Notes under the pieces: model-generated
Database searches by the model: none
What the model saw: only the letters and a program-made list of their open reading frames with translations
Told to the model about the DNA's origin: nothing
Shown here: positions 13,808 through 31,954 of the stretch, one piece after another
How positions within the stretch are numbered: position 1 is the stretch's first letter
How the letters are laid out: each line of letters starts with the position of its first letter
NCBI GenBank assembly: GCA_947492575.1
Contig: CANLNK010000002.1
Coordinates: forward strand, 127,304 to 159,303
Direction: 5' to 3'
DNA from: an uncultured Thalassotalea sp.
Lineage (GTDB): Bacteria; Pseudomonadota; Gammaproteobacteria; Enterobacterales; Alteromonadaceae
Length of the DNA: 32,000 bases
Position numbers and translations under genes: made by a program

Positions 13808-13825
13808 GATTATTTAATTAATTGT

Positions 13826-14710: not shown

Positions 14711-14712
14711 AT

Positions 14713-15258: not shown

Positions 15259-15260
15259 AA

Positions 15261-16863: not shown

Positions 16864-17654
16864 TAGAGTAATTTCCTTGTTAAGTAATTACTATTCTTAG
16901 TTAACAAAAAAGTACCAAGTATAATAGCCAGAAGCGCCCAACAAGTTATTGATAGCATATATTTAAACTCAAGAACGCCCTGCCACATAAGTACTTCTCG
17001 ATATCCCTGAATTAGCGCAGCTAAGGGGTTTAGTAAGAGCAACATATCTTTTAAGTTAGGGTCTTGTATTAAGTTAACATCCCAAAAAATACCGGAAGTA
17101 AACATAAGGCCCAACATAAAAAGCTGTATTACCATACGAAAGTCTTGCGCTATTGTGACGAAAACAGAAAAGAACGCCGCCACCCCAATAGTCAATAAAT
17201 ATTGTAAAAGGATAATAGGTATGAGATTAAGCCAATGAAATGAGGCGGAAAAGCCATTTACTATTAATACGACAAACAATACGACAAAAGCTATTTGTTG
17301 CTTATAAAAGGCCTCTTGACAATTAACAAGAGGAAACATCGCCTTGGGCATATCCCGCTGCATTAGCAATCCCTTATTTTCGATGAGGCTATTTGCCCCC
17401 GAAGTAACAGCTTTTGAAAACCACAAAAACGAGATTTTACCTACCATCAAAAATGTTAGAAAGTTTTCTCCCCCTCTATACAGTACATACTTGAATACAA
17501 AATAAAAAAGTAACACGTATAACAAGGGTTCAAGCACCCACCATAGATAGCTGAGTACTAGATTATTTGCTTGCGATTTTAATTTCATTAGAGCTTGTGT
17601 ATGAACAAGCGATATAAATCTTGAGGCATTCATGAGAACCAGAGACTCCCCCAC
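16863..17654 (-). CDS. wzm: ABC-2 type polysaccharide exporter permease
   Basis: 263-aa hydrophobic ORF with about 6 predicted TM segments, immediately upstream of and coupled to wzt. The track start is GTG. An in-frame ATG at 17633 (MNASRF...) is an alternative start. Confidence 0.8.
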   Translation of the reverse strand: MGESLVLMNASRFISLVHTQALMKLKSQANNLVLSYLWWVLEPLLYVLLFYFVFKYVLYRGGENFLTFLMVGKISFLWFSKAVTSGANSLIENKGLLMQRDMPKAMFPLVNCQEAFYKQQIAFVVLFVVLIVNGFSASFHWLNLIPIILLQYLLTIGVAAFFSVFVTIAQDFRMVIQLFMLGLMFTSGIFWDVNLIQDPNLKDMLLLLNPLAALIQGYREVLMWQGVLEFKYMLSITCWALLAIILGTFLLTKNSNYLTRKLL

Positions 17655-17770
17655 TCTGGATTAATGTAATATAACGACCATCCTAAGCCGCAGATAAAAT
17701 ACACTAATTAATATCTAGATTAAATACTTTAAAATGTTTTTAAAAGTATCCGCCCACTTTTCATACTAAA

Positions 17771-19195
17771 TTAACATTTTATTGACAATGAAATTACTTT
17801 TAACTTAAAAGCAAAGACCATAATTAATAAAAGAATCGGAAGATAAAATGCACTTGATAACCAAATGGAACTATTTCCAATCTGTATATAAGTCAAACAA
17901 AACACTGTAATAAGCGAAGACAAAATACAAATTGTAAAAGGTAATAACAGTTGCCTTAAGAGATTAAAAGCATTTACATTTGCATGACGTGAAAGCAAGA
18001 ATTTCAGATGGAACAGAAATAGAACGACCTGAACGCATATGAGCGCTATTGCCACCTGTTCGATGCCAAACTGAGCCCCAATATAAATACTGATAGGAAA
18101 CACTATCAATAACCCAAGGTTCCATTTAAATAACTGCTTAACTTTGCCAATTGCCATAAACAATGACCCCAGCGGATTCATACAAGATCTAACTAAACAC
18201 CAAATTGCGAATAATGTAAGTAATTGAGATAGATGTAACCATTTATCACCAAATAAGAAACTTACAACTTCTTCACTGAAAAACGCTAAGAAGCAATAAA
18301 TTGGGAAGTTAATAAGTGCTAATGTTGAAAGTAACTTGGTATAAATTATTGGTAAATCAGGTGACTTCTGCAATTTGGACATTACAGGAAACGCGACTCT
18401 CGTTAATATTGGGTTAATAACTAACGCTGGTTTCATACAAAACTGACGAACTAAGTTATACCCACCTAAAATTTCAGTTCCTAATAACTTACCTACTAAA
18501 ACCACATCAATATGTGAGTTAATGTAGTTTACGACGCCATCACCTGTTTGATAGGCACCAAAGCTTAAATAGCCAGAAAGACTTTTGTAAGAAGAAGGCA
18601 ATGTAGGCCTAATCTTAGCCGGCGATAGAATAATAAATAGCAGCGCTTGAACAGTTAAATTAGCTAAATAGCCATATACAAGCGAAAATACCCCATACTC
18701 GGCATTCAAACAGTACACAGCGGCAAGTAAGCCCGCTAATTGGCCAACAATCTCTACTTTACTGATAATGTTAAACATCAGTTGTTTTTGCAAAACTACC
18801 AAGTGCATTCTAAAGCAGGCACTTAACAAAAAAGCTGGAGACAAACTGGTGATTAACTGTTGCAAATGTTTAGCTTCGAAAAATAAAGCTGCCAACGGCG
18901 AAATAGCTATCATCAATGTTGCCACAAGCAAGGCTACGAACAAATTAATGACATATAGCTGGTTTACGTCATTTGGTTTTACTTCCTCTTTATGAATTAC
19001 TGCATTACCTATACCCAAGTCCATAAATACTTGAGCGAAGCCTACAAACAACATTAGCAAGGCATAACTACCTAATTCATCGCCAGTTAAGAAACGAGCA
19101 GCAATCGCCAATAAAGCTAATTGCGCGAAAGCTCTAATCAAGGTTGATGAGGTAGTCCATTTGATACCAGACTTTGCTTTTTCGAAAATCGACAT
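17771..19195 (-). CDS. wzx: Wzx-type (MOP superfamily) lipid-linked oligosaccharide flippase
   Basis: 474-aa polytopic protein with about 12-14 hydrophobic segments. Its N-terminus (KWTTSSTLIRAFAQLALLAIAARFL) is typical of the polysaccharide-biosynthesis-protein family. Its ATG directly abuts the stop of the GT56 gene. Confidence 0.8.
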   Translation of the reverse strand: MSIFEKAKSGIKWTTSSTLIRAFAQLALLAIAARFLTGDELGSYALLMLFVGFAQVFMDLGIGNAVIHKEEVKPNDVNQLYVINLFVALLVATLMIAISPLAALFFEAKHLQQLITSLSPAFLLSACFRMHLVVLQKQLMFNIISKVEIVGQLAGLLAAVYCLNAEYGVFSLVYGYLANLTVQALLFIILSPAKIRPTLPSSYKSLSGYLSFGAYQTGDGVVNYINSHIDVVLVGKLLGTEILGGYNLVRQFCMKPALVINPILTRVAFPVMSKLQKSPDLPIIYTKLLSTLALINFPIYCFLAFFSEEVVSFLFGDKWLHLSQLLTLFAIWCLVRSCMNPLGSLFMAIGKVKQLFKWNLGLLIVFPISIYIGAQFGIEQVAIALICVQVVLFLFHLKFLLSRHANVNAFNLLRQLLLPFTICILSSLITVFCLTYIQIGNSSIWLSSAFYLPILLLIMVFAFKLKVISLSIKC

Positions 19196-20245
19196 CTAAT
19201 GTCCTAGCAACTGCAGCCATTTAGGCGCTAGTGCGGCTTCTGTTAATGTATTATTTAGAATATCTGAATTCCTGCATTCGTTATCTAACGATGCTCTTAA
19301 TGATTCATAGCTAAACGAATGTAGAGATTCTGAACAAGTGAGTTTAAACCCCATGTCCGTAAGATAGCTAAAGCTAGATACTTTAGACTTCATAAAAACA
19401 GGTTTATTAAGGGCAAACATTGCATAAACCACAAACAACCCTTGCTGCCTATCGTGGCCAAATACACAAATATCAACATCTGAAAGTAACTTGGCATGCT
19501 GTTGTTTAGTCAACATGTCTTGATAAGCAGTGAATTTATCGCCAAAAATATCGTTACCTGCTCTAACAACTTGCTTTATGTAATCTACCTTACCTGCGTA
19601 ATTAAGTGTGCAAACCACTTTAATGTTTTCATCTGCTAAGTGCTTTAGTTGTTCAAACATTTCAAGATGGTTATTGGACTGAGCTGCCGAGTTTCCTACC
19701 AAAAAGGTAAGGGGCTTAGCAACGTTGGTTGATTTGCGTTCGTCAGTATTTTTTAAATTATCTAGATAAGCTTGTTCGAGAGGGTAAGGAATAACCAAAG
19801 CATCTCGGCGCTTTAAGTATTTTTCCACAAGCGCTGCATCACCTTTATTTAAACAAACAACGGACTCATAACGCTTACACAAAAAACGATGAATACATTT
19901 AATAATTCGTTGTTTAAATGTAAGCTTTGGAAGCTGGTAGCGATAAATATCTGCTCCCCAGAAAACACAACTTGCCCTAGAGGTTAGAGGATGGAACAAA
20001 AGCATTAGCCAAACTTTAGGGTCGAAGTTGCCGTGAATAATTAACTTGGTACTTCTTGGTAATTTATCAAGTTGTCGTTTTAAACCCTTGGCATCTTGAT
20101 AGTAATTAAAGCCGTCAATTTCTCGTTGCTCTGGTAAAGCAAGCGCCCAAAATTGCTGTTCCTCTGATACGTCCTTTAAACTACGAAAATAACTCGCCAT
20201 CGAGACGTAGTGATGAGGAGTATCTGCAAATATATGAACTATCAC
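19196..20245 (-). CDS. GT56-family glycosyltransferase (WecF/TDP-Fuc4NAc:lipid II transferase-like)
   Basis: 349 aa. IVHIFADTPHHY, LIIHGNFDPKVWLMLL, VFWGADIY, FLVGNSAAQSNNHLE and VFGHDRQQGLF are collinear with the conserved blocks of E. coli WecF as I remember that sequence. The GTG start overlaps the upstream stop (GTGA). Confidence 0.8.
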   Translation of the reverse strand: MIVHIFADTPHHYVSMASYFRSLKDVSEEQQFWALALPEQREIDGFNYYQDAKGLKRQLDKLPRSTKLIIHGNFDPKVWLMLLFHPLTSRASCVFWGADIYRYQLPKLTFKQRIIKCIHRFLCKRYESVVCLNKGDAALVEKYLKRRDALVIPYPLEQAYLDNLKNTDERKSTNVAKPLTFLVGNSAAQSNNHLEMFEQLKHLADENIKVVCTLNYAGKVDYIKQVVRAGNDIFGDKFTAYQDMLTKQQHAKLLSDVDICVFGHDRQQGLFVVYAMFALNKPVFMKSKVSSFSYLTDMGFKLTCSESLHSFSYESLRASLDNECRNSDILNNTLTEAALAPKWLQLLGH

Positions 20246-20970
20246 TGTGGTTCCTTCGATAGCTCTACTTTTACATACACTTTTTCACCTTGCTCATTAA
20301 CATAATAAGCATTGGCATAGTCACCGTGAGTTAGTGCTCTTAACAAGTCTAGGTGCTGCTGTAACGTGCCAGTACTTGTTAAATCTAATTGGCACAGCTC
20401 TTTAAAATCTGAAATTCCGTTGTAATTTCCGGTTTCTGATGGCCTACTCGCTGAATAGTCACAGGTAATCCAAGACAATAAGTGCTCTTCAATAAGCGCT
20501 ATCTCTTCCTGCTGAATTTTGTCATAAGCGCTTTGAGACGTATCTTCACTTGAAAGCGCTATCTCCCTCTGGGTAATAATGTCACCGTGGTCAATCTCTT
20601 TATCCATCAAGTGAACAGTAACCCCTGCAGGCTTACCATTAATAATAGAGAACACTTGTGGGAACCATCCTCTATTAAACGGATTTAAACCAGGGTGAAT
20701 ATTAATACACCTGACATTTGATACTAAATAGTCAGGGAATATCTGCTTACAATGTGCAGAAATAACGAGATCGTAGGATGCAGCAATTTCCTCAGCTGAC
20801 GACTTGACGTCAATTTTTGACATCCCCATTGCTTCTAATGCGGTAGGCACTTTATTTATCGAGCTATATTTATAATCGAAAGTATACTCTTGGTAACATG
20901 ATGCTTTAGTAATCCTAATAAACTCACTCACCAAAAGCACATTGTCAGATACGACAAGTATATTCATCAA
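20242..20970 (-). CDS. sugar N-formyltransferase (dTDP-4-amino-4,6-dideoxyhexose formyltransferase-like, VioF/WbtJ type)
   Basis: 242 aa. It has the formyltransferase core INIHPGLNPFNRG followed by VHLMDKEIDHGDII (Asn/His/Asp catalytic pattern). Size and context (after a DegT aminotransferase, with rmlA/rmlB nearby) fit this enzyme type. The probable true start is the ATG at 20967, one codon inside the track start. Confidence 0.8.
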   Translation of the reverse strand: MMNILVVSDNVLLVSEFIRITKASCYQEYTFDYKYSSINKVPTALEAMGMSKIDVKSSAEEIAASYDLVISAHCKQIFPDYLVSNVRCINIHPGLNPFNRGWFPQVFSIINGKPAGVTVHLMDKEIDHGDIITQREIALSSEDTSQSAYDKIQQEEIALIEEHLLSWITCDYSASRPSETGNYNGISDFKELCQLDLTSTGTLQQHLDLLRALTHGDYANAYYVNEQGEKVYVKVELSKEPQ

Positions 20971-22058
20971 AGTTCTCTATATTGTTTAAGGAAATCTATT
21001 ACCGTATCGCAAATATAATCTACTTGTTCGAAACTCAATTCATAGTACATAGGCAGGCATAGCACTCGGCTACAAATATCATTAGCTATTGGCGTCTCAC
21101 CTGCTCCCTTATAACACTCAACTAAACTTAAGCTGGGGTAGAAATATCGCCGAGTTTGTATTTCTAAACTGGCAAAATGGGCTTGAAGCGTTTCTAGCTC
21201 AGCTTCATTATTTAAAATTATCGGGGCATAAGCGCCATTAGGTTTACATGTTTCAGTAAAAAATGGGAAGCTGACATGGCCTTTGAGATTATTAATGTAT
21301 TGGGCTGCAAGTTGTGCACGATGAGAGGTGATACTCTCAACATGTTCAAATAAAGATAAGCCCATAGCAGCATGTATTTCACTCATCTTCGCATTTATAC
21401 CAACGAGGTTTGGCATATTATTAGCGTCGAAACCAAAATTAATTAATTGCTTCGCTTTTTCATAATCGGCCTTATTCTTGAACGCTACCGCTCCGCCTTC
21501 TACGGTGTGAAAAATTTTAGTTGCATGAAGGCTTATTGTCGCGGCATCGCCATATGCTAGTAGAGGCTTTCCGTCATATTCAGCACCAAAAGTGTGTGCA
21601 GCATCGTAAATAACTTTTAGCTGGTGTTCTTGTGCCAACGCTTCCAAGGTTTTTACGTCACAAGCATTGCCATATACATGCACTGGTAGAATTGCAGAAG
21701 CACTTTTTAGGGCGTCTGTTGAAATAGCTTTTGGATCGAGGTTCAAAGTCTCCCTATCTATATCTGAAAAGATAGGGTCTATACTTAAAGCAGATAATGT
21801 ACTACTCGTCGCAGCGAACGAAAAAGGTGTAGTGATAACTTTACCTTTTACTTCCAATGCCATTAATGCAACTTGGATAGCTAATGTACCGTTAGAAACC
21901 AATAATAAATATGGTACCTTAAAGTAGTCAGCTAGCTTTTGTTCAAGTTCCTGTAAAACGGGCCCATTGTTGGTTAGATAGTTTCGTTCAAATATATCTT
22001 CGATTCTGGCGCTGTAAGCTTCAAACTTTGGTAAGAATGGTTTGACAATCGGGATCAT
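20967..22058 (-). CDS. DegT/DnrJ/EryC1-family PLP-dependent sugar aminotransferase (dTDP-4-keto-6-deoxyglucose 4-aminotransferase-like)
   Basis: 363 aa. SLHATKIFHTVEGGAV contains the Schiff-base lysine context of this family. The N-terminus (NYLTNNGPVLQELEQKLADYF) is also typical. Its ATG overlaps the upstream stop (ATGA). Whether the product has gluco (VioA) or galacto (WecE) configuration cannot be told. Confidence 0.9.
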   Translation of the reverse strand: MIPIVKPFLPKFEAYSARIEDIFERNYLTNNGPVLQELEQKLADYFKVPYLLLVSNGTLAIQVALMALEVKGKVITTPFSFAATSSTLSALSIDPIFSDIDRETLNLDPKAISTDALKSASAILPVHVYGNACDVKTLEALAQEHQLKVIYDAAHTFGAEYDGKPLLAYGDAATISLHATKIFHTVEGGAVAFKNKADYEKAKQLINFGFDANNMPNLVGINAKMSEIHAAMGLSLFEHVESITSHRAQLAAQYINNLKGHVSFPFFTETCKPNGAYAPIILNNEAELETLQAHFASLEIQTRRYFYPSLSLVECYKGAGETPIANDICSRVLCLPMYYELSFEQVDYICDTVIDFLKQYREL

Positions 22059-23830
22059 TGGTTAGCATTGACCTTTTTACTTTCTGAACTTTGAACTACA
22101 CGGTTTACCTTCTGTAGAAGCTCTATAGCCATAGCATGGCTTGGATTAACAACGAGCGCGGATTCTAACAAATATTTTGCTGCATTAAAATTCTTTAGAA
22201 CGGCCTCGCAGATAGCAAGATTAACCAATATATATATCTGCTTATTATCCAATTGATATGCTTTCCTTAACCAAAATCTTGCTTTTTTATGCATTTTTAA
22301 ATCCATTAGCATCTTACCCTTTTGCGCATAAAGCATAGCTTTTTGATTTGGACGTTTTACTTGCTTTTGCAACTTATCTAATAAATTGAAAGCCTGTTGC
22401 TGCATCCCCAGCGAAAACAAGCATTTCGCATAATTTTGAAAAAGCTCTGGTTGCTTTCCTAAATTAGATGCATGAGCCATGTCATAAAGCCTTATCGCGT
22501 GATCAAAATAGCTTAACGCTAGGTGACACTGGTCATTATCTATATACATTTGCCCTAAGCTCATATACAGGCGAGGGTTGCGCTTCGATATCGAAATTTC
22601 ATTTTTATAAAAAGCAAATTTATCAGCCCAAACCTTTGCTCTCTCATGAGTAATAATGGATAACGCAGAAACTATTATTACAGACAGTAAAACAAGATAT
22701 GTTCTTAGCCTATTTACCTTTAGCAGAATGGTAAACAAAGATGCGATTAAAACACTGTGCATAATGTTAGGCAGGTAAGTTCTATGCTCGAAAGCGACAT
22801 CTCGAATAGGAATAAACGAACTTTCTACCGCGTGTAAAACATAAAAAGAAAAAAGTGCTAACGAAGCTAAAGGCGCTTTTTTGATAAAAGCTAACCCTAA
22901 TAAAATGAGCCCAATATGGAGTGTTAAATAAGTTAGTTCTGTTACTGAAAATGCTTTAGCAATCGTAACATCGTACTCAAGCCTAAAATCTAGTGGGATA
23001 TAAAATTGCTTTATGTAATGGGCTAGCACTGCCAATTGAGTGTAGAAATACTCTAACCTAGTTAATTCACTATTCTCTCGGGTAAAACTATCAACTAACG
23101 TAACCAGCTTATCGAAATTGCCGACATAGAAGTATGCGCTAAGCCCTGCTATTAACACAGCTGCTGCAAACAAAAAACCTAATTTATTTGGGCTTTTTTT
23201 AATAATTAAAAATTCAATCAGAAGAAAAACTAAAGGCAAGACAACAACATTCTGCTTGCTTAACATGGCTGCAATGAAGCTAAGGAAGCTCAACGTTAAC
23301 CATATGAATTGATGCTTACAATTAGCAGAGAGCCTTCCCTTCAAAAATGCGTACAAACTGAGCAGGCTAAAAAATGCGGCGATAAGTGCTATTTGCTGAA
23401 CAATATAAATGACAGCTTGAGAGTTTTGAGGGTGAAAAGCAAAAATAAGGGTGGCAATCCCCGCGGCTATTTTATTTATATTGCCATTGAGAGATAAGCT
23501 GTTACGGCTCTCAAAAGAAACACTCTGCTCTAACAAGCAAAGCAATATACCAAACACAAGAACACTACTAGCTATATGAATTAATAAACTAACAAGATGG
23601 TAACCTAGAGTCGAATCCTGAAAAAAGGAGTACTGTGCTGCAAACAAGCTGTACGGTAGGGTACGTAATCCATAAACGTTAATGATTTTTTGCCAATCTA
23701 CAGGCGCTTTAATCAAGCCATTGTGAACAATAGAACTAAAGTCGTCTAAGTAGAAGTCAGCGTTCAGACTAGGGAAGTAGATTAAAAAAAGTGTGATTGC
23801 AAAAAAAAGGAAGCAATAAAAACGTTTCAA
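22055..23830 (-). CDS. polytopic GT-C-like membrane glycosyltransferase with C-terminal TPR domain (TMTC/PMT-like architecture)
   Basis: 591 aa. Residues 1-~400 hold about 10-12 hydrophobic segments, with FYLDDFSSIVHN in the first predicted external loop (an acidic DD pair, as in GT-C enzymes). Residues ~410-580 form several TPR-like repeats (LGQMYIDNDQCHLALSYFDHAIRL, AKYLLESALVVNPSHAMAIELL). The TTG start has a GGAG 7 nt upstream. Confidence 0.6.
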   Translation of the reverse strand: MKRFYCFLFFAITLFLIYFPSLNADFYLDDFSSIVHNGLIKAPVDWQKIINVYGLRTLPYSLFAAQYSFFQDSTLGYHLVSLLIHIASSVLVFGILLCLLEQSVSFESRNSLSLNGNINKIAAGIATLIFAFHPQNSQAVIYIVQQIALIAAFFSLLSLYAFLKGRLSANCKHQFIWLTLSFLSFIAAMLSKQNVVVLPLVFLLIEFLIIKKSPNKLGFLFAAAVLIAGLSAYFYVGNFDKLVTLVDSFTRENSELTRLEYFYTQLAVLAHYIKQFYIPLDFRLEYDVTIAKAFSVTELTYLTLHIGLILLGLAFIKKAPLASLALFSFYVLHAVESSFIPIRDVAFEHRTYLPNIMHSVLIASLFTILLKVNRLRTYLVLLSVIIVSALSIITHERAKVWADKFAFYKNEISISKRNPRLYMSLGQMYIDNDQCHLALSYFDHAIRLYDMAHASNLGKQPELFQNYAKCLFSLGMQQQAFNLLDKLQKQVKRPNQKAMLYAQKGKMLMDLKMHKKARFWLRKAYQLDNKQIYILVNLAICEAVLKNFNAAKYLLESALVVNPSHAMAIELLQKVNRVVQSSESKKVNANQ

Positions 23831-23862
23831 CGATCAACTCCATTGATTGTAGTCAGTATTAG

Positions 23863-23899
23863 AAAAACAAAAAAGCGAGCCTAAGCTCGCTTTTTTTCT
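23863..23899 (-). terminator. rho-independent terminator downstream of the surface-protein gene
   Basis: Minus-strand sequence AAAAAAAGCGAGC-TTAG-GCTCGC-TTTTTTGTTTTT. A GC-rich 6-bp stem is extended by A/T pairs, closes a 4-nt loop, and is followed by a T run. It lies 16 nt after the TAA stop at 23915. Confidence 0.75.
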
Positions 23900-23914
23900 A
23901 AAGTACTATTCGCA

Positions 23915-25210
23915 TTACTTAGTAAGTACGCGATCACCGTCTGACTTAGTGAAGTATAGTGCTTTGATTTCAGTCGCTGTAGACGGAGTGTTAACAACTA
24001 CGTCAAATGCAACAACACCTGAAGTGATGCCAGCGTCAGCGATAGCTTGCTTAACAGCAGCAGAGATGTCTGTAACACCTTCAGCCATAACAGTAGCAAC
24101 ACCTTCGAAAGTAACCGCATCTTCACCAACGTAAACAGTTACGTCAACACCACCAGTTTGAGTAGAAGTGTTAGAAACAGTAACAGCTTGTGCGTAGTTA
24201 GAACCTACGTACATTAATGGGATGTGTGCTTTTGCACCGTTAAGCGTCCAAGAACCTGCAGCAGCCTTGTCTAAAGTAGCAGTAGAAAGCTCTTTAGTAG
24301 CGTCAGCTGGGTTTTCGTAAACTACGTCAGTAGAAACCATGAATGCTTGATCAGGGATTACTGTATCTTCTGGACCTTCAACTACTACGCTTACAGAGTA
24401 AGTACCAGCAGTTGCAGCAGCAAGATCTACGTCTAAAGAAGCAGACATGAAGTCTTCAGCAACTTCAGCAGCAGTACCGTCGATAGTAACAGTACCATCG
24501 TCGTCACCGCCTAACTCACCGTCACCGTCAGCGTCTAAGAATGAGAAGTCACCGTATACTGTGAATGCTTGCTCAACAGTAGTAACACCCATGTCAGTAG
24601 CTGCTAAAGTAGTTTCAACAGTCATAGTATCTTGAGTACCACCACCAACGAATGCTTGACGTTGTTCGTTTACGTCAACAACACCATCGAACTTAGCTGA
24701 AACTTTAGAAGAAAGCTCTGCTGCGAAAGTGTAAGCAGTGCCAGCAGCTGACTTATCAACGTCGATTGGACCGTCAACAGTGTCAACACGACCAGCAGCA
24801 GTTACTTTAACAGTACCTTTGTCAGCAGCACCAGAGATGTCTAACATTACGTCTGCTAATGTGAAAGTAGCGTCTGCGTCACCTTCTGCGAAATCTTCAG
24901 TTACTAAGTAACGCACAGCGTTATCTTTGTAGCCAAGGAATTCTAAAGAAGTGTTAGGATCAGCAATTGTAATTGCATCGCCATCTTCGTCTTCAGTTAC
25001 AACATCTGCACCTGAGAAAGTTACAGTGATGATGTCACCAGCTGAGTAATCACGACCTAAAACAACTGTTACGTCTTGCGCTTCAATCGTTTTGATACCT
25101 TGCGCGTACTCAACACCAATTACAGTGTCAGTAACACCTACAGTTGATGCAGCAGCGCCAAATGATGCAGTTGTGGCCACAGCAGCTGCAATAAGCGTCT
25201 TTTTAAACAT
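23915..25210 (-). CDS. secreted, highly acidic, Cys-free Thr/Val/Ala/Asp/Gly-rich protein; candidate S-layer or abundant surface protein
   Basis: 431 aa. It has a Sec-type signal peptide MFKKTLIAAAVATTASFGAAAS with an A-x-A cleavage context. There is no cysteine, and D+E greatly outnumber K+R (I count 16 K and 5 R). The RBS is strong (GGAG 7 nt before the ATG). Codon choice differs markedly from the neighbours (GGT, GCT/GCA, GTT/GTA, GAC, TTC, ATC, CGT) and the local GC is visibly higher. The gene has its own terminator and a 386-bp upstream leader. Confidence 0.55.
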   Translation of the reverse strand: MFKKTLIAAAVATTASFGAAASTVGVTDTVIGVEYAQGIKTIEAQDVTVVLGRDYSAGDIITVTFSGADVVTEDEDGDAITIADPNTSLEFLGYKDNAVRYLVTEDFAEGDADATFTLADVMLDISGAADKGTVKVTAAGRVDTVDGPIDVDKSAAGTAYTFAAELSSKVSAKFDGVVDVNEQRQAFVGGGTQDTMTVETTLAATDMGVTTVEQAFTVYGDFSFLDADGDGELGGDDDGTVTIDGTAAEVAEDFMSASLDVDLAAATAGTYSVSVVVEGPEDTVIPDQAFMVSTDVVYENPADATKELSTATLDKAAAGSWTLNGAKAHIPLMYVGSNYAQAVTVSNTSTQTGGVDVTVYVGEDAVTFEGVATVMAEGVTDISAAVKQAIADAGITSGVVAFDVVVNTPSTATEIKALYFTKSDGDRVLTK

Positions 25211-25341
25211 TATATTTCTCCAATTTCATGAAATTGAACACTATCCAAATCATTTGTTTGTGTTCTTTATCTTTTACCTTTCGGTTCTTCATTTGTTCGC
25301 AATACAGCGTCCATAATGAACACTTAATAACGAATACCGCC

Positions 25342-25371
25342 AATTTACAACCATAAAAGCCTAAAAGTCAA
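25342..25371 (-). promoter_or_regulatory. candidate sigma70 promoter for the surface-protein gene
   Basis: The minus strand reads TTGACT (25371..25366), an 18-nt spacer, then TAAATT (25347..25342). This would give a 5' UTR of about 125 nt. It is the best match I found by eye in the 386-bp intergenic region and has no other support. Confidence 0.3.
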
Positions 25372-25596: not shown

Positions 25597-27672
25597 TTAT
25601 TCATTAATGATATTTAGACCACTAAGCGACTGCTGGAATGAGGACATGATCCCACTCCATTGCTCACTTCTAGAAATTACTTTTGGTGTCACCAACAGCA
25701 CCAACTCTGTTTTTGAGAAGGAGTCACTCTTCGACTTAAATAAATTCCCTAAAACAGGAATGTCGCCAAGTAATGGGATTTTGTTATCTACGACTGATTT
25801 ATTTTCATCTATCAATCCTCCCAATATTATTGTTTGGCCACTTTCTGCTACTACCGCCGTTGCCAAGTTACGTTCATATATGTTTGGATTTCCTGTACTG
25901 CCTGACGCCGATGACTCGACTTCATTACTGATAGATTCAGTTATATCCATGATGACAACGCCTTGAGCATTGATAGTCGGAGTGACTGAGACCTTAATGC
26001 CAGTTTGACGATAAGAAGTAGATGTGGTCTGCCTATCATTTTCACCAAACCCGTCTGTAACTGAATCTGTTACAGATATTTGCTCACCAACTTCTAAGGT
26101 CGCCGTGACTCCATCTCTAACCAAGAGGCTAGGGTTAGACAAAATTTTAACGTTTGTGTTGCCTTGTGAAAAAGCTGCACTGACGGTATCACTAAAGCCA
26201 TTGGTTAAAGAAAAGCTGAAGCCACCATCAGAGGCACTTACGTCTCCAATTGTCCCTCCACTAAAACGGCCATTTTCGAGAGCCCATTTAACACCGTACT
26301 TGAAGTCATCAGTTAGCGTAACTTCCGCGACCACTATATCAAGCATTACTTGCTTAGGAAGAACGTCTAATCGGTTAACTAAAGGGATGATATTTCTGTA
26401 CTCAGTTCCAGTTGTATAAAATATCAATGCGTTTGAGCGCTCATCTACCACAAACGTCAATTCAGTATTAGAAGCACCGGTCACTTTTTTAGCTTTCACT
26501 AAATTTGACGTGCTTTTTCCATTTGAATCACTAGTACTAACTGCAAGTTGACTGTTAGCGCTTTTAATTGCTTGAGTTCTTGCGGAAATCAGTGGAGTAA
26601 GGCTTTCGCCAATATCTGCTGCTCTTGCATATTTTGGATGATAAACGTAATACCGCTTTACATCACCTTGCGGTGGCTTATCGAGCGTTTTTGTCCAAAA
26701 CTTAACTCGATCCATAAGCTCCTTTGTAGCTGAAAAAACTGCTACTGCACCAATTTGCATTAATGGTACGAAAACCAAGTTATTATTTTGTGGATCATTT
26801 ATGCTATTCGGAATTCCTTCCGTATCTAAAAGTGCTTGTAATTGCTGAAGGTAAATATCAGGAGATGAATACACTAACTTAACTAGCCCTACATATCGCC
26901 CTCTATTTGCCGGAGAATCTAATAATTGAATTAATTCAACAGCTCTTGCTACATTAGTGTAGTTACCACGTATAAACAAAGCACTTTGTTTCACATCTAA
27001 ATTGACTTTAACGTCTGCTAATTCCTGAACAGTGTTTTTAAGTGAGGTTTTAATGCCGTATAAGATAGGCATTACATGAAGTATGCTTCTTCCTCGCTCT
27101 ACTGAACTTACTTCTCGCCCCATACTGACGATAGTTGATGATTTGCTCTTGGGATCAAGCTTGTTAAGCATGAAGGTGTTATTTTCATGTTTAAGCTGAA
27201 TGTTTCTCTGTGCAAAAATTTGTTCTGTCAGCTGGAATAGCTCTTTCTTTGAAACCGCTTTATTCAGGTTTAATGTCACAACTTCTTTGCTATTGGCTAT
27301 GTTAGGCGCAAGCACGTAGTTAGCCTGCAACAGCTCACCAAACGTATAATGAATGAAATCAGCCAAAGGCATTTTGTTTGCTTTGACAGTTGCGACTTCT
27401 TCATCAGGAAACAAGCTTGATAACTGTGTAGACTCAAACTGAACAAGCCCTCTTTTCATTGCTTGTAATCTAGTAAACGGCCTATCTTTACTTTGCTCTT
27501 CGACATCACCAGCTGCATCGCTATCTAATAAAACATCGTCCCCACTTTCCTTTAAATAAGAAGTTTCCAACGAATGAACTTGGTTCTCTGCTTTATCATC
27601 AATACTCGCGCAACCGCTCAAGACTGTTAATAAACAAACTGAAACTAAACTAACTTTAAATTTGACCATCAC
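25597..27672 (-). CDS. gspD: secretin (GspD/MshL-type outer-membrane channel) with N-terminal lipobox
   Basis: 691 aa. The canonical secretin C-domain is present (ILGGLIDENKSVVDNKIPLLGDIPVLGNLFKSKSDSFSKTELVLLVTPKVI), preceded by N-domain-like repeats. The signal peptide ends in the lipobox L-S-G-C (VCLLTVLSGCAS). The track start is GTG and the ATG one codon inside is more likely. Confidence 0.92.
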   Translation of the reverse strand: MMVKFKVSLVSVCLLTVLSGCASIDDKAENQVHSLETSYLKESGDDVLLDSDAAGDVEEQSKDRPFTRLQAMKRGLVQFESTQLSSLFPDEEVATVKANKMPLADFIHYTFGELLQANYVLAPNIANSKEVVTLNLNKAVSKKELFQLTEQIFAQRNIQLKHENNTFMLNKLDPKSKSSTIVSMGREVSSVERGRSILHVMPILYGIKTSLKNTVQELADVKVNLDVKQSALFIRGNYTNVARAVELIQLLDSPANRGRYVGLVKLVYSSPDIYLQQLQALLDTEGIPNSINDPQNNNLVFVPLMQIGAVAVFSATKELMDRVKFWTKTLDKPPQGDVKRYYVYHPKYARAADIGESLTPLISARTQAIKSANSQLAVSTSDSNGKSTSNLVKAKKVTGASNTELTFVVDERSNALIFYTTGTEYRNIIPLVNRLDVLPKQVMLDIVVAEVTLTDDFKYGVKWALENGRFSGGTIGDVSASDGGFSFSLTNGFSDTVSAAFSQGNTNVKILSNPSLLVRDGVTATLEVGEQISVTDSVTDGFGENDRQTTSTSYRQTGIKVSVTPTINAQGVVIMDITESISNEVESSASGSTGNPNIYERNLATAVVAESGQTIILGGLIDENKSVVDNKIPLLGDIPVLGNLFKSKSDSFSKTELVLLVTPKVISRSEQWSGIMSSFQQSLSGLNIINE

Positions 27673-27684
27673 AAAATTCTTATA

Positions 27685-28248
27685 TTAAGACTTACTTTTC
27701 AAAAACAACTGCAGTGAGATTATTCTATCACCATCAGCAAGTTCTATATGATTATTCTCTATTATCTGTACTGTATAATTATCAAGCTTTTCTTGAGTAA
27801 CTAATTTGATTGACTTAATAACGCCAGATACTAAGTGTCTTTCGCTGAGTAAGGCAAACTTATTGCCGTTTTCATCAAAAATAGCGGTAAGTGAATACTC
27901 CTTTTCTCCACTAAAAAAGTTCTTCTTTGCCCCTTTTTGCTTGTTTTGCTCTTCAAGCGACATAATTTGAACTTTGGGTTTTGAAGGTTTGTTCTGTTTA
28001 GCTTTTGGTTTTGGCTTCTCAAATCTTTCAAGTGCTTCGTCTACTTTTTTAAGTTCGTCTTTCATTAGAAATTTGATTTGTGGTTTATTTTGAACACCTT
28101 CAGACACTAATGCAGATAATTTTATTTCATCACTAGTTAATCGTGACGAAAAATCAATCAAAGCAAGTAAAAAGCTCGCGACTAATAATATGGAAAGAGA
28201 AGTTTTATTCACTAGTATTCTCCTCTTTATATTTTCTCCATACTGCAA
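27685..28248 (-). CDS. bitopic secretion-system component, GspC/PilP-like (TM anchor, Lys/Pro linker, small beta domain)
   Basis: It has an N-terminal TM segment (SLSILLVASFLLALI), a basic KPKPKAKQNKPSKPK linker, and a C-terminal ~70-aa beta-rich segment (YSLTAIFDENGNKFALLSE...IELADGDRIISLQL) resembling GspC-HR/PilP domains. It sits directly before the secretin. The likely true start is the GTG at 28212, which has AAGAGGAG 7 nt upstream and overlaps the upstream stop. The track's ATG at 28248 would overlap the upstream gene by 44 nt. Confidence 0.45.
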   Translation of the reverse strand: MQYGENIKRRILVNKTSLSILLVASFLLALIDFSSRLTSDEIKLSALVSEGVQNKPQIKFLMKDELKKVDEALERFEKPKPKAKQNKPSKPKVQIMSLEEQNKQKGAKKNFFSGEKEYSLTAIFDENGNKFALLSERHLVSGVIKSIKLVTQEKLDNYTVQIIENNHIELADGDRIISLQLFLKSKS

Positions 28249-28789
28249 AAGTAATTTTGCCAGACACTCTTCCTAGCCTCATACTTGAGGCCCTCATTCT
28301 CGACACATTCAAAGTGTAGTTAGCTAGTGCAACTTTAGGTTTTAAACTCTCCGCTACCAGCAACCCTTTCATTAGCTGTTTAAAACTGCCAGTTACTGTC
28401 ATCTCCATCATCTGCTCTTCGTAACCACTTTTTTGCACTGGCGTTAACCAGCTAGTTCGAGATACAGATAACCCATGCTTTACAAACAATTCCTCTATCG
28501 CCTCTTGATGCCCTAGTCTAAATTGAACTTCGTCATCTGACGTTGTAAAAAGTAGCGCATCGTACTCTATTACTTCCTGCTCTATAGTGCCTATAGTCGA
28601 TAACATTTTATCTTGGTTTAATAGCAAGCGTTCTGTTTTCAATAGACGCTCCTGCAATTTGGCTATTGAGGCCACTTTACTTTCTTGCCACTCCAAAAGA
28701 GGCGCCACAGCAAATTTAATGGCAGCCAAAAAGAGAATAACGCCGAGCATGAGAGGCTTGTTATTTAGTAGTTCTCTCATCTTAGCCAA
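28205..28789 (-). CDS. bitopic secretion-system component, GspM/PilO/MshJ-like
   Basis: About 190 aa with one N-terminal TM segment (PLMLGVILFLAAIKFAVAPLL), then a coiled segment (IAKLQERLLKTERLLLNQ) and an alpha/beta C-terminal domain. The position between the L-like and C-like genes fits this role. The track start is TTG. The ATG at 28780 (MRELL...), 1 nt after the upstream stop, is more likely. Confidence 0.5.
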   Translation of the reverse strand: MAKMRELLNNKPLMLGVILFLAAIKFAVAPLLEWQESKVASIAKLQERLLKTERLLLNQDKMLSTIGTIEQEVIEYDALLFTTSDDEVQFRLGHQEAIEELFVKHGLSVSRTSWLTPVQKSGYEEQMMEMTVTGSFKQLMKGLLVAESLKPKVALANYTLNVSRMRASSMRLGRVSGKITFAVWRKYKEENTSE

Positions 28790-29891
28790 CCACCAGTGTA
28801 ATTTTCACCGTAAATAATTCCTTTCCACCGGACTTTACAGCTGGAGAAACAATTTCAGGGTTTTCAAGCGCACTAGAAGTCGCCAGGAAATGCATAATAT
28901 CTGTTGATTTAGAGGCTTTCATTCTCAACGTTATGTCGCTTCCTGAAAAATTAACTAGAGATACATCAGCCCCTTTGTCGGCAAGCTCAGTAATTAATAA
29001 CCAAAGGGGAGCACTTAATTGTTCGAATAGTGGATTATTGGCTAACCCTTCTAACTGAGCATTCATATTTTCCAACTGGCCTTGCTTCGCGAAAAGCTCA
29101 TTGATAGAGGATTGCTGCTTCGCTAATTGAGAAGACAGTGTATTCTCCTTCAAAATCAGATAGCCACTTGCTATCGACATGTAAGAAGCAAAGAAAACAG
29201 CTAAAGAGATTGCTGAAGTTTTTATAAAACGAGGTGACCAAAAGCTCTTAAGTAATGGCAGGTTTAAAGCCTGACTATACGAACCGCTTGGCAACAACGT
29301 AACACTTTTTAGCAATAGCATTATGTATTCGCCTTGCTCAAAATTCTGTACCTCTGCGCCGCTCTGAACAGCTGAAAAAAATCCACTTTCTTTCGTACTC
29401 ATTAAGCTCAATAGTTCGCAGCTAAAGCCATCCTTAGAAAACTCCCCATGAATAAGCCGTTCTCGAAAAGAGCCGCTAATTGAATTTGGTACAGTTTGCT
29501 TGTTTAACCTTAAGAACAACAAATAACTTTCAGGAAGAATGAACAATGAATCTCGACATTGTTCATCGATAAAGGTTTGTTTGATAACGAAAAAGTAAAC
29601 TCTAGTTTTGCCACCATCAATAGATGAAGCGGCGGTGTAGATCTGGCCAGCAAAAGGGGCTACATCCTTCATATGCTTAGCGGCAAGTAAGGCCTCTTTC
29701 TTTGAGGAAATCGGTAAGTCTTTATGGGTTTCGAATGTATGTTCTTTACCCACAATAGTAAGTAAGGCTTTAGATTCAGAAACACCTTGTAGGCCTTTAA
29801 CCCCCTTACCTTCTAAGTCTAATACATATGACTCAGCACCGTGAAACCGACAACGGTTCGCCAAAAGTTTTATCATCGCTGACAAGTGCAC
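28782..29891 (-). CDS. GspL-like / PilM-PilN-fusion-like (MshI-like) inner-membrane assembly protein
   Basis: 369 aa. It has a cytoplasmic domain of about 220 aa, a single TM segment (AISLAVFFASYMSIASGYLIL), a coiled segment (QLAKQQSSINELFAKQGQLENMNAQLEGL), and a small periplasmic domain. The GTG start has GAGG 5 nt upstream. Confidence 0.5.
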   Translation of the reverse strand: MHLSAMIKLLANRCRFHGAESYVLDLEGKGVKGLQGVSESKALLTIVGKEHTFETHKDLPISSKKEALLAAKHMKDVAPFAGQIYTAASSIDGGKTRVYFFVIKQTFIDEQCRDSLFILPESYLLFLRLNKQTVPNSISGSFRERLIHGEFSKDGFSCELLSLMSTKESGFFSAVQSGAEVQNFEQGEYIMLLLKSVTLLPSGSYSQALNLPLLKSFWSPRFIKTSAISLAVFFASYMSIASGYLILKENTLSSQLAKQQSSINELFAKQGQLENMNAQLEGLANNPLFEQLSAPLWLLITELADKGADVSLVNFSGSDITLRMKASKSTDIMHFLATSSALENPEIVSPAVKSGGKELFTVKITLVVG

Positions 29892-30010
29892 TTTTCCCTC
29901 AAAATAAACAGCCGAAGGGCATTATCCATAGTTTCTTAAGTTAATACAATCTGGTATTCGCTTGAATGTGTTGCAAATAATTTAGGTTAAGTAATTATCC
30001 CATCCATTTT

Positions 30011-30886
30011 TTACATTCGAGAGAGGATAACAAATGGCGTCACCGAATTTTGATTTTGGATTTTTACTAAAGTAACTTGCTCCAGGAATACTGTACCAAC
30101 GCTTACTTTTATAATCACTTGATGAAGCGTACCAGGGTTAAAGTCTATTGATTCAAACGTCTGGCCACCAACAAGCTTCGTCCAGTCCTGTTCGGTAAAG
30201 CTGTTGCCGCTGTTGCTATTTACAACAAGTGCTTCTGCCACACTTTCCCCAAACAAAGCAGTATTTAACTCTTTTGAAGAGTAGGCAGGGTTGAATGACT
30301 GCGTTGCATAAATTGTGACAAATTGGCTAAATTTTTGAACGACACTGTCACTCACTCCTTTGATGGCGGCAAGCTCGCTAATATGCTGCAAAGGCCCATT
30401 CCTTGGCTTAGTATTGCCCGAGTATGAAGCCAACTCTGCTCCTTGTCGCCTTGTAACATTATCAGCATCTATCCAATCCATAATGCTATCATATGTAGCA
30501 GTCAACTCATCTTCTTGGACACCGCTGAGTAGCAAAGCTCTCTTAATATAGAGTTCGGGTGCTGTTAATAATGAAAGTCGACCGGATAAAGGGTTAATTT
30601 CAACGATGGTGTAGTCATTTAGCTTAAAAGCCTTAGCTAAATACCAATTGACCTCGTTAATGTTCATACCATTAATCTGATGAGAATCCATTCTAAAAAG
30701 CTCTGCTAATACATTCGACTCTGCTGATTTTAAAAGTAACTCAGCTTGGGCTCGATCATCAAATCCCTGTGCGATCCCAACATTACTTCGTGCCGTTTTA
30801 GATATTTGGATGGCGATAACCGATATCAGAGTTGTTAGCAACAGCACCTGGATAAGAGCTAGCCCGTCCTCTTTAAAAACTTTCAC
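30011..30886 (-). CDS. gspK: GspK-like minor pseudopilin
   Basis: 291 aa. The hydrophobic N-terminus GLALIQVLLLTTLISVIAIQ, the central IMDWIDADNVTRRQGAELASY and ISELAAIKGVS match the conserved GspK blocks (DW-x-D-x-D ... GAE ... EL-x-x-[VI]-x-G[VI]). The GTG start overlaps the end of the upstream gene. Confidence 0.7.
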   Translation of the reverse strand: MKVFKEDGLALIQVLLLTTLISVIAIQISKTARSNVGIAQGFDDRAQAELLLKSAESNVLAELFRMDSHQINGMNINEVNWYLAKAFKLNDYTIVEINPLSGRLSLLTAPELYIKRALLLSGVQEDELTATYDSIMDWIDADNVTRRQGAELASYSGNTKPRNGPLQHISELAAIKGVSDSVVQKFSQFVTIYATQSFNPAYSSKELNTALFGESVAEALVVNSNSGNSFTEQDWTKLVGGQTFESIDFNPGTLHQVIIKVSVGTVFLEQVTLVKIQNQNSVTPFVILSRM

Positions 30887-31541
30887 TAAATTGCACCATC
30901 ACTCGAGAATCAAATTCGGTTAATTTGACTTGGAGATTTTGTTCTTTACCTGACAGGCCTAATTTCACGCTCAACCGTTCGGGCATTATATTTCGATTTA
31001 GGGCATTGAAAGATGTCCACCAACGCTTGGGGCTAACGTTATTCTTTTCATCAATGTTTTCAAAACCAAAATAGCTGAACTGAACGTAATCAAGTTGTTC
31101 AATTAAAACCACTTTTTTTGAAAAAGTTCTGCGTTGAGACAAGTGTGTAAAAGCCTCACCTACTTTTGCAGGGTGTTCCTCATAAATCAATTGATAACTA
31201 AAGTCTTCCGCTTGATTGATAGAAAGGCGAAAGATTGTCGGTAAGCCACCACTAAAGAGTGAGCGCGTACTTACAGCCACTAGACCTTCATCATCGCCCT
31301 CAAAGAAAATGATAGGGTTATTTTCTTCATCCCTGATAATGAAGGGGTAAATACCTTCTATCAAACGCTTAGCCATAATCAGAGATTTTGTATTTTTAGC
31401 AGAGGCGTCAAAATTTCCCAACTCATTACCCCATCGTTGCATAAAAAAAGAGTATCCTTGAGTCATTATGATTAATGTAAAACTCATAATCGCTAACGCT
31501 ACTAGCAGCTCTACCAAAGAGAAACCTCTGTTTCTTACCAT
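30873..31541 (-). CDS. gspJ: GspJ-like minor pseudopilin (prepilin-type N-terminal cleavage/methylation domain)
   Basis: 222 aa. Its N-terminus MVRNRGFSLVELLVALAIMSF is a class III signal (G|F-S-L-V-E). Size and position before the K-like gene fit GspJ. Its ATG overlaps the upstream stop (ATGGTAA). Confidence 0.7.
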   Translation of the reverse strand: MVRNRGFSLVELLVALAIMSFTLIIMTQGYSFFMQRWGNELGNFDASAKNTKSLIMAKRLIEGIYPFIIRDEENNPIIFFEGDDEGLVAVSTRSLFSGGLPTIFRLSINQAEDFSYQLIYEEHPAKVGEAFTHLSQRRTFSKKVVLIEQLDYVQFSYFGFENIDEKNNVSPKRWWTSFNALNRNIMPERLSVKLGLSGKEQNLQVKLTEFDSRVMVQFSESF

Positions 31542-31954
31542 GAGATATCCTCATATTGGTATTCTCTAGAGCGTCCCTTTACTGTTACGCTAAAAGAAAC
31601 TTGCCATTTCTTCAGCCTATGTTCTGCTTGACTTATCTCAGCACCAACAAATCTTACCGGAGGCTTTATAGTCTCTATAACACGAGCTTCCCAGAAATAC
31701 GTCCCTTCGAGTAATTCGCCTTTTCCTGATAAAGAGTTTTGAGCTTTATTTGACGCGATTTCGCTTGAGATCTCACTTGTTACTAACGTAGCAATGGAAG
31801 AGGTTAAAAGTGCACTTTCCGCTTTTGTGTTTGCGATAATGGCACCACGGAAAACAAGTGTAAATACACTTAAACTTATGAATGCAATGAGAGCCGCGAC
31901 AAGCACCTCTATTAGCGTAAAGCCAGATGAGTTTTTTCTATTGTACGTAATCAT
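31535..31954 (-). CDS. gspI: GspI-like (or small GspH-like) minor pseudopilin
   Basis: 139 aa. NSSGFTLIEVLVAALIAFISL is a prepilin cleavage/methylation motif (G|F-T-L-I-E). Size and position fit GspI. Confidence 0.65.
   Translation of the reverse strand: MITYNRKNSSGFTLIEVLVAALIAFISLSVFTLVFRGAIIANTKAESALLTSSIATLVTSEISSEIASNKAQNSLSGKGELLEGTYFWEARVIETIKPPVRFVGAEISQAEHRLKKWQVSFSVTVKGRSREYQYEDISW

Follow-up and report, generated by a model that had tools for sequence, protein, structure and literature searches.

A predicted Slr4-family S-layer gene in a marine Thalassotalea-like bacterium, with an adjoining type II secretion cluster and a conserved leader element

We have found that a gene in a 32,000-nucleotide stretch of contig CANLNK010000002.1 (uncultured Thalassotalea sp., assembly GCA_947492575.1), a stretch we refer to as the window, very probably encodes an S-layer protein of the Slr4 family in a marine, Thalassotalea-like member of the Alteromonadales; we put the probability of this reading at about 0.87. 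Sequence comparison identifies the gene, slr4, as a new and so far uncharacterised addition to an established family, lying in the genomic setting known for that family. An earlier reading of the raw sequence (the original prediction) had made out an S-layer gene solely by its design features and had named Slr4 as a family, and our main result is confirmation of that reading, which is supported by an end-to-end match to PF19526, by homology to the founding protein and by the type II secretion system (T2SS) operon upstream. The assignment gives a name to a 'hypothetical protein' and allows some 20 kb of the window to be read as one cell-surface module comprising the T2SS, the S-layer protein and glycan genes. 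Beyond what has been published we modestly add the size of the family, a revised fold, a candidate Ca2+ site and a leader element.

Results

The founding description of the Slr4 family is that of Ali et al. (2020; PMC7821379), who reported 108 homologues. The window protein matches the Pfam model PF19526 (S-layer protein Slr4) with 250.9 bits (E 3e-74, cut-off 25), its residues 59-427 covering model positions 1-370 of 370, and it scores higher than the founding protein from Pseudoalteromonas tunicata, which reaches 219 bits; apart from PF19526, no family in Pfam or NCBIfam matched it (E<=0.01). BLASTP alignment with P. tunicata Slr4 (EAR28894) gave 27% identity over 429 columns (E 5e-16, window residues 32-409), a value that is approximate because the P. 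tunicata sequence was taken as optical character recognition (OCR) text from Figure S1 of Ali et al. (2020), with 577 of 579 residues. A single-sequence search of 5.8 billion proteins returned 80 homologues, all 80 carrying PF19526, as do all 120 of the profile hits listed. The top match overall is 96% identical and the nearest named homologue, from Thalassotalea euphylliae, is 75% identical; other near named relatives come from Fluctibacter, Bowmanella, Pseudoalteromonas, Colwellia and Idiomarina, all within the marine gammaproteobacterial setting expected of the family. Homologues from T. euphylliae, under four accessions, are already present in the supplementary species table of Ali et al. 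(2020; PMC7821379).

Among 1.84 billion cluster representatives (50% identity), a profile search recognised 1118 as Slr4 proteins at E<=1e-3, of which 567 also pass E<=1e-30, bringing the family to at least 1118 clusters at 50% identity, compared with the 108 homologues of 2020. Most of these representatives are about 430-480 aa long, and the 431 aa of the window protein are therefore typical. By this measure the P. tunicata protein, at 578 aa, is unusually long for the family. We also note that genomes assigned to T. euphylliae (P0005, P0129, L025 and L031) contain an Slr4 protein of 433 aa that is 75% identical to that of the window, another of 509 aa at 33% and one locus at 25%, a spread that indicates paralogues or highly divergent alleles, as would be expected of a surface antigen. 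In the complete genome of Pseudoalteromonas sp. T1lg65 (L015, at 9845) the slr4 frame stops after 51 codons with tblastn similarity continuing beyond, and this copy may be a frameshifted pseudogene or reflect a sequencing error.

The features of the protein that were originally noted from the sequence alone, namely a Sec signal peptide, a lack of Cys, extreme acidity, a dominance of Thr, Val, Ala, Gly and Asp, and the absence of RTX (repeats-in-toxin) motifs, of a pilin signal and of a C-terminal aromatic residue, are all borne out. The N-terminus begins with two Lys, followed by a hydrophobic core (mean Kyte-Doolittle value 1.65) and an Ala-rich c-region, and by inspection rather than by use of a predictor we read this n/h/c layout as a Sec signal for signal peptidase I with an AXA-type cleavage site at about residue 21/22. 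We sought the prepilin motif (G-F/M-xxx-E), a lipobox and RTX GGxGxD repeats in the protein and found none of them; nor did we find the aromatic C-terminal signature of outer membrane proteins (OMPs), the C-terminus being ...DRVLTK. The protein contains no Cys, one Trp and one His; its isoelectric point is 4.05, the mature part has 69 Asp and Glu versus 19 Lys and Arg, and Ala, Val, Thr, Asp and Gly together make up 61% of its residues.

The most conserved peptide of the family, MFKK[TS]L[IL]A[ALV], is found at the start of the window protein. In the family alignment (A1), which like the structural model and the pairwise alignment with P. tunicata Slr4 was made without Met1 and is therefore numbered one below the full-length protein, the signal peptide carries 2.9 bits versus about 2.0-2.4 elsewhere; conservation is high also in the C-terminal third (motif AGxWTLNG, residues ~318-325) and falls to its minimum in the first part of the mature protein. 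No part of Slr4 is better conserved than the signal peptide (MFKKTLIAAA...), in protein and in DNA (ATGTTTAAAAA), an unusual finding for a signal peptide. Conservation at both levels suggests selection on the whole translation-initiation region, and by the same logic the annotated start of P. tunicata Slr4 (MEIMFKK...) is probably three codons early.

Among the checks proposed with the original prediction, family searches matched the Slr4 model and detected no similarity to VapA/AhsA or RsaA, and AlphaFold modelling of the monomer gave a confident all-beta model. Specifically, AlphaFold2 (AF2), run on an alignment of 67 sequences, returned a mean predicted local distance difference test score (pLDDT) of 90.9 and a predicted template-modelling score of 0.77, with nearly all of the chain in beta-strands and only the signal peptide disordered (pLDDT <50 for residues 1-15). 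The model suggests that the protein folds as consecutive immunoglobulin-like (Ig-like) beta-sandwich domains. Foldseek comparison with the PDB gave 128 matches at E<=1e-3, the top ones, with template-modelling scores (TM-scores) of 0.14-0.28 and sequence identities of 6-13%, being Gram-positive pilins (BcpA, SpaD and others), the MSCRAMM adhesins SdrD, ClfB, FnBPA and UafA, and integrin leg domains. The protein also has a loop (DADGDGELGGDD) with the DxDxDG spacing of EF-hands (here DxDGDG), which is kept in 42 of the 67 aligned members, every close relative included, and is absent from P. tunicata Slr4. The profile similarity of this region to EF-hand 1 of calmodulin is non-significant (E ~1). 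The loop suggests that window Slr4 may depend on Ca2+, and it provides a testable candidate site.

Upstream of slr4, in the same orientation, lies a T2SS cluster that runs past the end of the window (Table 1). Its secretin scores 288.5 bits against the GspD model TIGR02517, under the cut-off of 351. In 30 genome loci, collected by means of the conserved N-terminal peptide of the family, a secretin homologue lies directly upstream of slr4 in every case and pseudopilins are found in 29; in T. euphylliae the cluster goes on upstream to GspF and GspE, and gene order throughout the locus matches that of the window, with protein identities of 50-82%. A dedicated T2SS operon immediately upstream is a described feature of the Slr4 family (Ali et al. 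2020; PMC7821379). From the conserved synteny and from the precedent of Aeromonas, we infer that this divergent T2SS would be a dedicated Slr4 exporter.

Codon bias is far stronger in slr4 than elsewhere in the window, the effective number of codons being 30.9 versus 46.1-59.0 in the other 26 open reading frames (ORFs) of at least 100 aa. The codons singled out in the original prediction are indeed those preferred: GGT (85%), GCT (59%), GTT (61%), GAC (66%), TTC (82%), ATC (71%) and CGT (80%), together with ACT (80%) and with AAC, TAC and CAA (each 100%), such that four-fold codons mostly end in T and two-fold codons mostly in C. These are the usual favourites of highly expressed gammaproteobacterial genes, a correspondence that is uncalibrated here, in a window without ribosomal protein genes. 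The gene had also been described as a compositional island, and of this description the raised GC content stands (0.444 versus 0.32-0.41 for the remaining ORFs of the window), its attribution to codon choice does not. GC is 0.60 and 0.46 at codon positions 1 and 2, and at position 3 it is 0.273, the lowest value in the window; the excess is therefore due to the Ala/Gly/Val/Asp/Thr-rich composition of the protein. We rejected an origin in foreign DNA on the strength of the same low third-position value. The island is thus a product of amino-acid composition and translational selection, not of GC-rich codon choice.

The signals flanking the gene were likewise correctly noted, including a well-spaced GGAG, a terminator of its own and a long leader (Table 1). 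The intergenic region upstream comprises 386 bp with 30% GC. GGAG or AGGA occupies the Shine-Dalgarno (SD) position in all 32 loci compared, and the terminator stem-loop (GCGAGC-TTAG-GCTCGC) is the same letter for letter in T. euphylliae. A promoter-like site is conserved in T. euphylliae and Fluctibacter, and from its position the slr4 leader would be about 125 nt long. Taken together, the codon bias, the strong SD, the conserved structured leader and the terminator point to high expression of slr4.

The proximal 225 nt upstream of slr4 (window 25211-25435, compared with L031 9776-10000) are 91.5% identical to those of T. euphylliae, as against 78% for the slr4 coding sequence, 72% for that of the secretin and 56% for the distal spacer. 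We note that the proximal leader outdoes every coding sequence of the locus in conservation (66-78% in nucleotides; 50-82% for the proteins). At its 3' end is a perfect palindrome, which across slr4 loci abuts the SD in the near-invariant form UUUCAUGAAA and is followed by the conserved start AUG-UUU-AAA-AAA (AUG UUU AAA AAG in the window). The core of the palindrome, TTTCATGAAA, is found in the same position in every one of the 31 related loci, and these represent at least 7 genera and protein identities down to about 25%; the centre is symmetrically altered (CATG to CTAG) in two of the loci, and another carries one mismatch. Over 32 loci, the two bases that flank the core change together (GC 22, AU 8, GU 1, UA 1, unpaired 0). 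The core is found once per locus at slr4 in 30 of 31 loci, with one variant, and there are only two further occurrences in about 620 kb of related loci. When metagenomes were scanned for the majority form with GGA and ATGTT after it, at least 120 sites were found (L032-L151), and the ORF after each was judged with an Slr4 hidden Markov model: at least 44 precede ORFs that match it, and most of the other 76 sites listed precede ORFs of fewer than 100 codons and look like chance matches. A second copy of the core in the window, at 928-937, overlaps the ATG-AAA start of a methyltransferase ORF (268-933); this is probably coincidence, the expectation being 0.11 per window.

Directly 5' of the palindrome a hairpin is present at the same place, with differing sequence, in all 32 loci. 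The mean z score of the hairpin region over these loci is -3.2, versus -1.4 for a control segment 60 nt upstream, and folding of window positions 25336..25195 as RNA gives -25.8 kcal/mol (z -2.54). Of 37 unique leader sequences, 23 fold better as the sense strand than as the reverse complement and 13 fold worse (p=0.014), and 44 of the 363 pairs in the leader hairpins are G-U; both the G-U pairs and the asymmetry between strands argue for structure in RNA rather than in DNA. The symmetric CATG-to-CTAG change in two loci also fits a DNA palindrome. An Rfam scan of window positions 23700-25700 gave only sub-threshold matches on the terminator and none in the leader, and a full-text literature search for TTTCATGAAA found only unrelated primers and sites and no description of the slr4 leader element.

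We considered and rejected several functions for this leader. A role for the hairpin as an intrinsic terminator or attenuator is at odds with a terminator scan that finds none there and with a U-tract that in most loci is no longer than 3-4 U. We rejected an upstream start at the AUG within the palindrome because this AUG lacks an SD and, in L007 and L008, gives way to CUAG. A regulon-wide operator does not fit a core that is essentially confined to slr4 in the ~620 kb of related loci, and a CsrA-type GGA-in-loop site does not fit GGA positions that, on inspection, are inconsistent between loci.

Directly after the slr4 terminator lies the gene for a 591-aa membrane protein. Its AF2 model (pLDDT 93.2) has a helical membrane region to about residue 400 and then TPR helices, TPR families of Pfam match residues 420-570, and the architecture fits that expected of TMTC proteins (about 11 transmembrane helices, then a C-terminal TPR region). 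Homologues carry the source names 'protein O-mannosyl-transferase' and 'Transmembrane and TPR repeat-containing protein'. In 62 homologues D29-D30, after the first transmembrane helix, and K192-Q193 are invariant (full-length numbering), within the consensus sequences ...PFYLDDFS... and ...TKQNTxTLP...; matched by eye rather than by profile alignment, the DD and TKQNTxT resemble TMTC motifs M1 and M4 (K-E/Q-T-xx-T). Motif M1, a DD in the first extracytoplasmic loop, and M4 have been assigned to the binding of metal and of dolichyl-phosphate-sugar (PMC7801869). The membrane part of the protein has no Pfam match even at E<=10, and its Foldseek and PDB profile matches are all to TPR, which swamps the membrane part. 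We note that the protein belongs to a large bacterial family without a Pfam model for its membrane domain. The gene adjoins slr4 in five genera (the window and L031, L001, L002 and L008, from T. euphylliae, Fluctibacter, Bowmanella and Idiomarina). These observations make the protein a candidate TMTC-like protein O-glycosyltransferase of the GT-C type.

Further downstream is a dTDP-amino-sugar cluster of surface-glycan genes that includes a DegT-type C4-aminotransferase-like gene, a sugar N-formyltransferase, GT56 (WecF-like), a Wzx flippase, an ABC-2 permease with its ATPase, and RmlA, RmlC, RmlD and RmlB. Homologues of DegT, GT56 and Wzx are each found in 8-9 of the 30 loci, within about 8 kb downstream of slr4; in six Pseudoalteromonas loci these genes come directly after slr4, and in L031 (T. 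euphylliae) DegT, formyltransferase and GT56 follow the gene for the membrane protein with TPR. About a third of the loci (L001, L003-L005, L015, L017, L018, L021 and L031) thus have a glycan set downstream of slr4. The recurring set, to which RmlA and RmlB also belong, is similar to the Fuc4NAc branch of enterobacterial common antigen, except that a formyltransferase, present in some loci only, takes the place of the acetyltransferase. The set may make a glycan that anchors or decorates the S-layer.

Beyond the glycan cluster are large uncharacterised proteins, sulfotransferase-like proteins and a methyltransferase. Homologues of the 1386-, 498-, 737- and 237-aa ORFs (Table 1) were not found in the related slr4 loci, and PADLOC gave no defence-system match for Slr4 or its large neighbours.

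Table 1. Coordinates of slr4 and of the features around it, numbered from the first nucleotide of the window
Feature	Coordinates	Strand	Basis or remark
slr4 coding sequence, predicted acidic Cys-free S-layer protein precursor	23915..25210	minus	431 aa, ATG start, TAA stop; PF19526, homologues, AF2
Putative Sec-type signal peptide, aa 1-22, MFKKTLIAAAVATTASFGAAAS	25145..25210	minus	Inspection; per-block conservation; low AF2 pLDDT
EF-hand-like loop DADGDGELGGDD, aa 226-237, candidate Ca2+ site	24500..24535	minus	Motif and conservation
Shine-Dalgarno GGAG	25218..25221	minus	7 nt before slr4 ATG
Perfect 16-nt palindrome CAATTTCATGAAATTG, core TTTCATGAAA	25221..25236	minus	Abuts SD; unique perfect match in window
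Leader hairpin 1, GAACAC-N18-GTGTTC	25236..25265	minus	Directly 5' of palindrome
Predicted stem-loop near 5' end of presumed transcript	25296..25334	minus	RNA fold
Promoter-like site TTGACT-N18-TAAATT	25342..25371	minus	Consensus scan; conserved in T. euphylliae, Fluctibacter
slr4 intrinsic terminator AAAAAAGCGAGC-TTAG-GCTCGCTTTTTT	23869..23896	minus	Terminator scan: 12 pairs, then T-run
Secretin (GspD-like) of dedicated T2SS	25597..27672	minus	Pfam Secretin, Secretin_N; TIGR02517 GspD
Further T2SS genes	27685..31954	minus	Pfam/NCBIfam; synteny; operon runs past window end
187-aa ORF, in T2SS block	within 27685..31954	minus	No family match
GspM-like	28205-28789	minus	Pfam/NCBIfam
369-aa ORF	28782-29891	minus	No family match
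GspK	30011-30886	minus	Pfam/NCBIfam
Two pseudopilins	30873-31541, 31535-31954	minus	Pfam/NCBIfam
591-aa membrane protein, C-terminal TPR; candidate TMTC-like GT-C glycosyltransferase	22055..23830	minus	Directly after slr4 terminator
Surface-glycan genes	12728..22058	minus	Pfam, NCBIfam
1386-aa protein	8471-12631	minus	Weak N-terminal sulfotransferase-like match only
498-aa protein	6975-8471	minus	No family match
737-aa protein	4745-6958	minus	C-terminal Glyco_trans_1_2 match only
237-aa protein	2825-3538	minus	No family match

Discussion

Several points weigh against the conclusion that the window gene encodes a lattice-forming S-layer protein. The case is built on sequence and predicted structure; identity to the sole member proven to form a lattice is only 27%, itself an approximate figure given the OCR'd supplement; and the Cys-containing segment of about 105 residues that follows the signal in P. 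tunicata Slr4 is missing. The model is a generic Ig-like chain with matches of low TM-score, and the fold alone therefore does not tell a lattice protein from an adhesin. The window has no ribosomal protein genes, so the codon optimality of slr4 is gauged only against the other ORFs of the window, and the match of the promoter hexamers alone is not above chance in our consensus scan. It is possible to account for some of these points with a T2SS-secreted, Ig-like adhesin or biofilm-matrix protein that shares ancestry with Slr4 and forms no regular surface lattice: the low identity and the missing segment would fit such a protein, as would the Gram-positive pilins, SdrD, ClfB, FnBPA, UafA and integrin legs among the best Foldseek matches, and Slr4 itself is also a shed matrix component. 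We nevertheless regard this as improbable. The full-length match to the Slr4 model is stronger than that of the founder itself, a length of about 430-480 aa is the norm of the family, and the architecture of the locus and the translation-initiation region are common to all its members; moreover, window Slr4 has no adhesin-type repeats or anchoring motifs, and TM-scores of at most 0.28 to the adhesins reflect generic Ig-like similarity only.

Two other readings seem to us far less probable still. Ali et al. (2020; PMC7821379) used I-TASSER to thread P. tunicata Slr4 onto RsaA (PDB 5n8p) at 11-17% identity and called the outcome unclear; together with the acidity, the lack of Cys and the Asp-rich candidate Ca2+ site of the window protein, this threading would favour an RsaA-like, beta-helical S-layer protein of the RTX type. 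Against it stand the absence of RTX GGxGxD repeats and the presence of an N-terminal Sec signal and an adjacent T2SS rather than a C-terminal type I secretion signal with an ATP-binding cassette (ABC) exporter. Sequence and profile searches of the PDB with Slr4 gave no significant match, with no solved S-layer protein among them, RsaA is not in the best 50 of 1523 PDB Foldseek matches, and AF2 predicts beta-sandwich domains. The AF2 model thus does not support the published threading; it would place Slr4 among the S-layer proteins that are built of Ig-like beta-sandwich domains. We find it equally hard to credit that slr4 encodes some other abundant envelope protein, such as a porin or other OMP, a pilin or pseudopilin, or a secreted enzyme. 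The Sec signal, the high-expression design and the adjacent, pilus-like T2SS genes would suit such a protein, but it shows none of the aromatic C-terminal signature, prepilin motif or lipobox, no enzyme or porin family matches it in Pfam or NCBIfam at E<=0.01, and AF2 predicts a soluble beta structure of several domains rather than a barrel. An S-layer protein of the Slr4 family is the reading that we prefer.

If window Slr4 is such a protein, its production might proceed as follows. The design of the sequence suggests that slr4 would be transcribed, probably at a high level, as a unit of its own from a promoter about 125-160 nt upstream to the strong intrinsic terminator, giving an mRNA in which a structured leader, a strong SD, the A/U-rich start and the extreme use of preferred codons would favour translation. 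The precursor would cross the inner membrane by way of Sec and lose a signal of about 21-22 residues, as the sequence indicates and as would fit the finding that the N-terminus of P. tunicata Slr4 is absent from mass spectrometry (MS) data (PMC7821379). In the periplasm it would fold into consecutive beta-sandwich domains, as in the AlphaFold model, and would probably bind Ca2+ at the DxDGDG loop. Universally conserved synteny and the precedent of Aeromonas suggest that it would then leave through the outer membrane by the adjacent T2SS. At the surface, by homology to P. tunicata Slr4, it would self-assemble into a paracrystalline lattice and be shed into the matrix; more speculatively, a surface glycan produced by the neighbouring cluster probably retains it there through non-covalent binding.

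We read the leader as a conserved, apparently undescribed module for translation initiation and mRNA stability that is specific to slr4 genes. The near-invariant core of the palindrome suggests recognition by a specific factor. It is tempting to suppose that a dedicated factor acting in trans, either a protein or an RNA, binds the palindrome and tunes the translation or stability of the S-layer mRNA, a proposal that we hold only tentatively and consider rather unlikely; if true, Slr4 synthesis might, for example, be coupled to secretion or assembly capacity. Alternatively, the leader is a passive stabiliser. The slr4 leader gives concrete access to the means by which bacteria drive and control synthesis of the protein that they export in greatest quantity, and it could also be put to use in marine hosts as a strong expression cassette.

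The target of the 591-aa protein may be the Thr-rich Slr4 itself, as a substrate of O-glycosylation, or the anchoring glycan of the lattice. We note that the MS coverage of P. tunicata Slr4 is 93% (Ali et al. 2020; PMC7821379), which argues against heavy glycosylation there. If the TMTC-like enzyme does also O-glycosylate Slr4, the locus would by itself provide for the expression, secretion and glycosylation of the S-layer.

Among known systems the closest is that of P. tunicata D2, whose Slr4 (EAR28894) is the most or second most abundant protein, self-assembles as a p4 lattice of about 9.1 nm, is also shed as a matrix component, and is required for the S-layer, which is lost in a deletion mutant, as established by transmission electron microscopy, purification and deletion (Ali et al. 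2020; PMC7821379). The two share PF19526, a Sec signal beginning MFKKTL..., an upstream T2SS operon and a marine Alteromonadales host, and the palindrome and SD region of the window is seen in every Pseudoalteromonas locus examined, a set that does not include that of P. tunicata. They differ in length (578-579 versus 431 aa) and in the two Cys of the extra post-signal segment of about 105 residues; the lattice and the abundance are those established for P. tunicata Slr4. In 'Molassodon' strains of Vibrio parahaemolyticus, slr4 and a dedicated T2SS lie inside a K locus with an ABC-transporter-dependent glycan, and deletion of slr4 removes a highly abundant protein (bioRxiv 10.1101/2025.06.27.661923). 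The window likewise has an ABC-2 transporter and glycan genes near slr4, but the genus is different, the likeness is drawn from a description of the locus, and the lattice was not visualised in those strains.

Beyond the Slr4 family, the system of the window would work most like that of Aeromonas, in which VapA/AhsA is an acidic protein with a Sec signal that is exported by an S-layer-dedicated T2SS (SpsD/ApsE) encoded beside the structural gene. All of these features have counterparts here, yet no sequence similarity to VapA/AhsA was detected in Pfam or NCBIfam and the families are different. RsaA of Caulobacter is acidic and Cys-free, assembles in a Ca2+-dependent manner and is anchored on an O-antigen of 4-acylamino-4,6-dideoxyhexose (N-acetylperosamine), which recalls the acidic Cys-free protein, the candidate Ca2+ loop and the adjacent 4-amino-dideoxyhexose pathway of the window. 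It is a beta-helix with RTX repeats that leaves by type I secretion, whereas window Slr4 has a Sec signal and a T2SS, no RTX and a beta-sandwich model. Lastly, ompA of Escherichia coli, slpA of Lactobacillus and vapA of Aeromonas have long stem-loop 5' leaders known to stabilise the mRNAs of abundant envelope proteins. The slr4 leader resembles these in being long, in its stem-loops, one of them beside the SD, and in preceding an envelope gene that is probably highly expressed; unlike them, it has a near-invariant, family-specific palindromic core.

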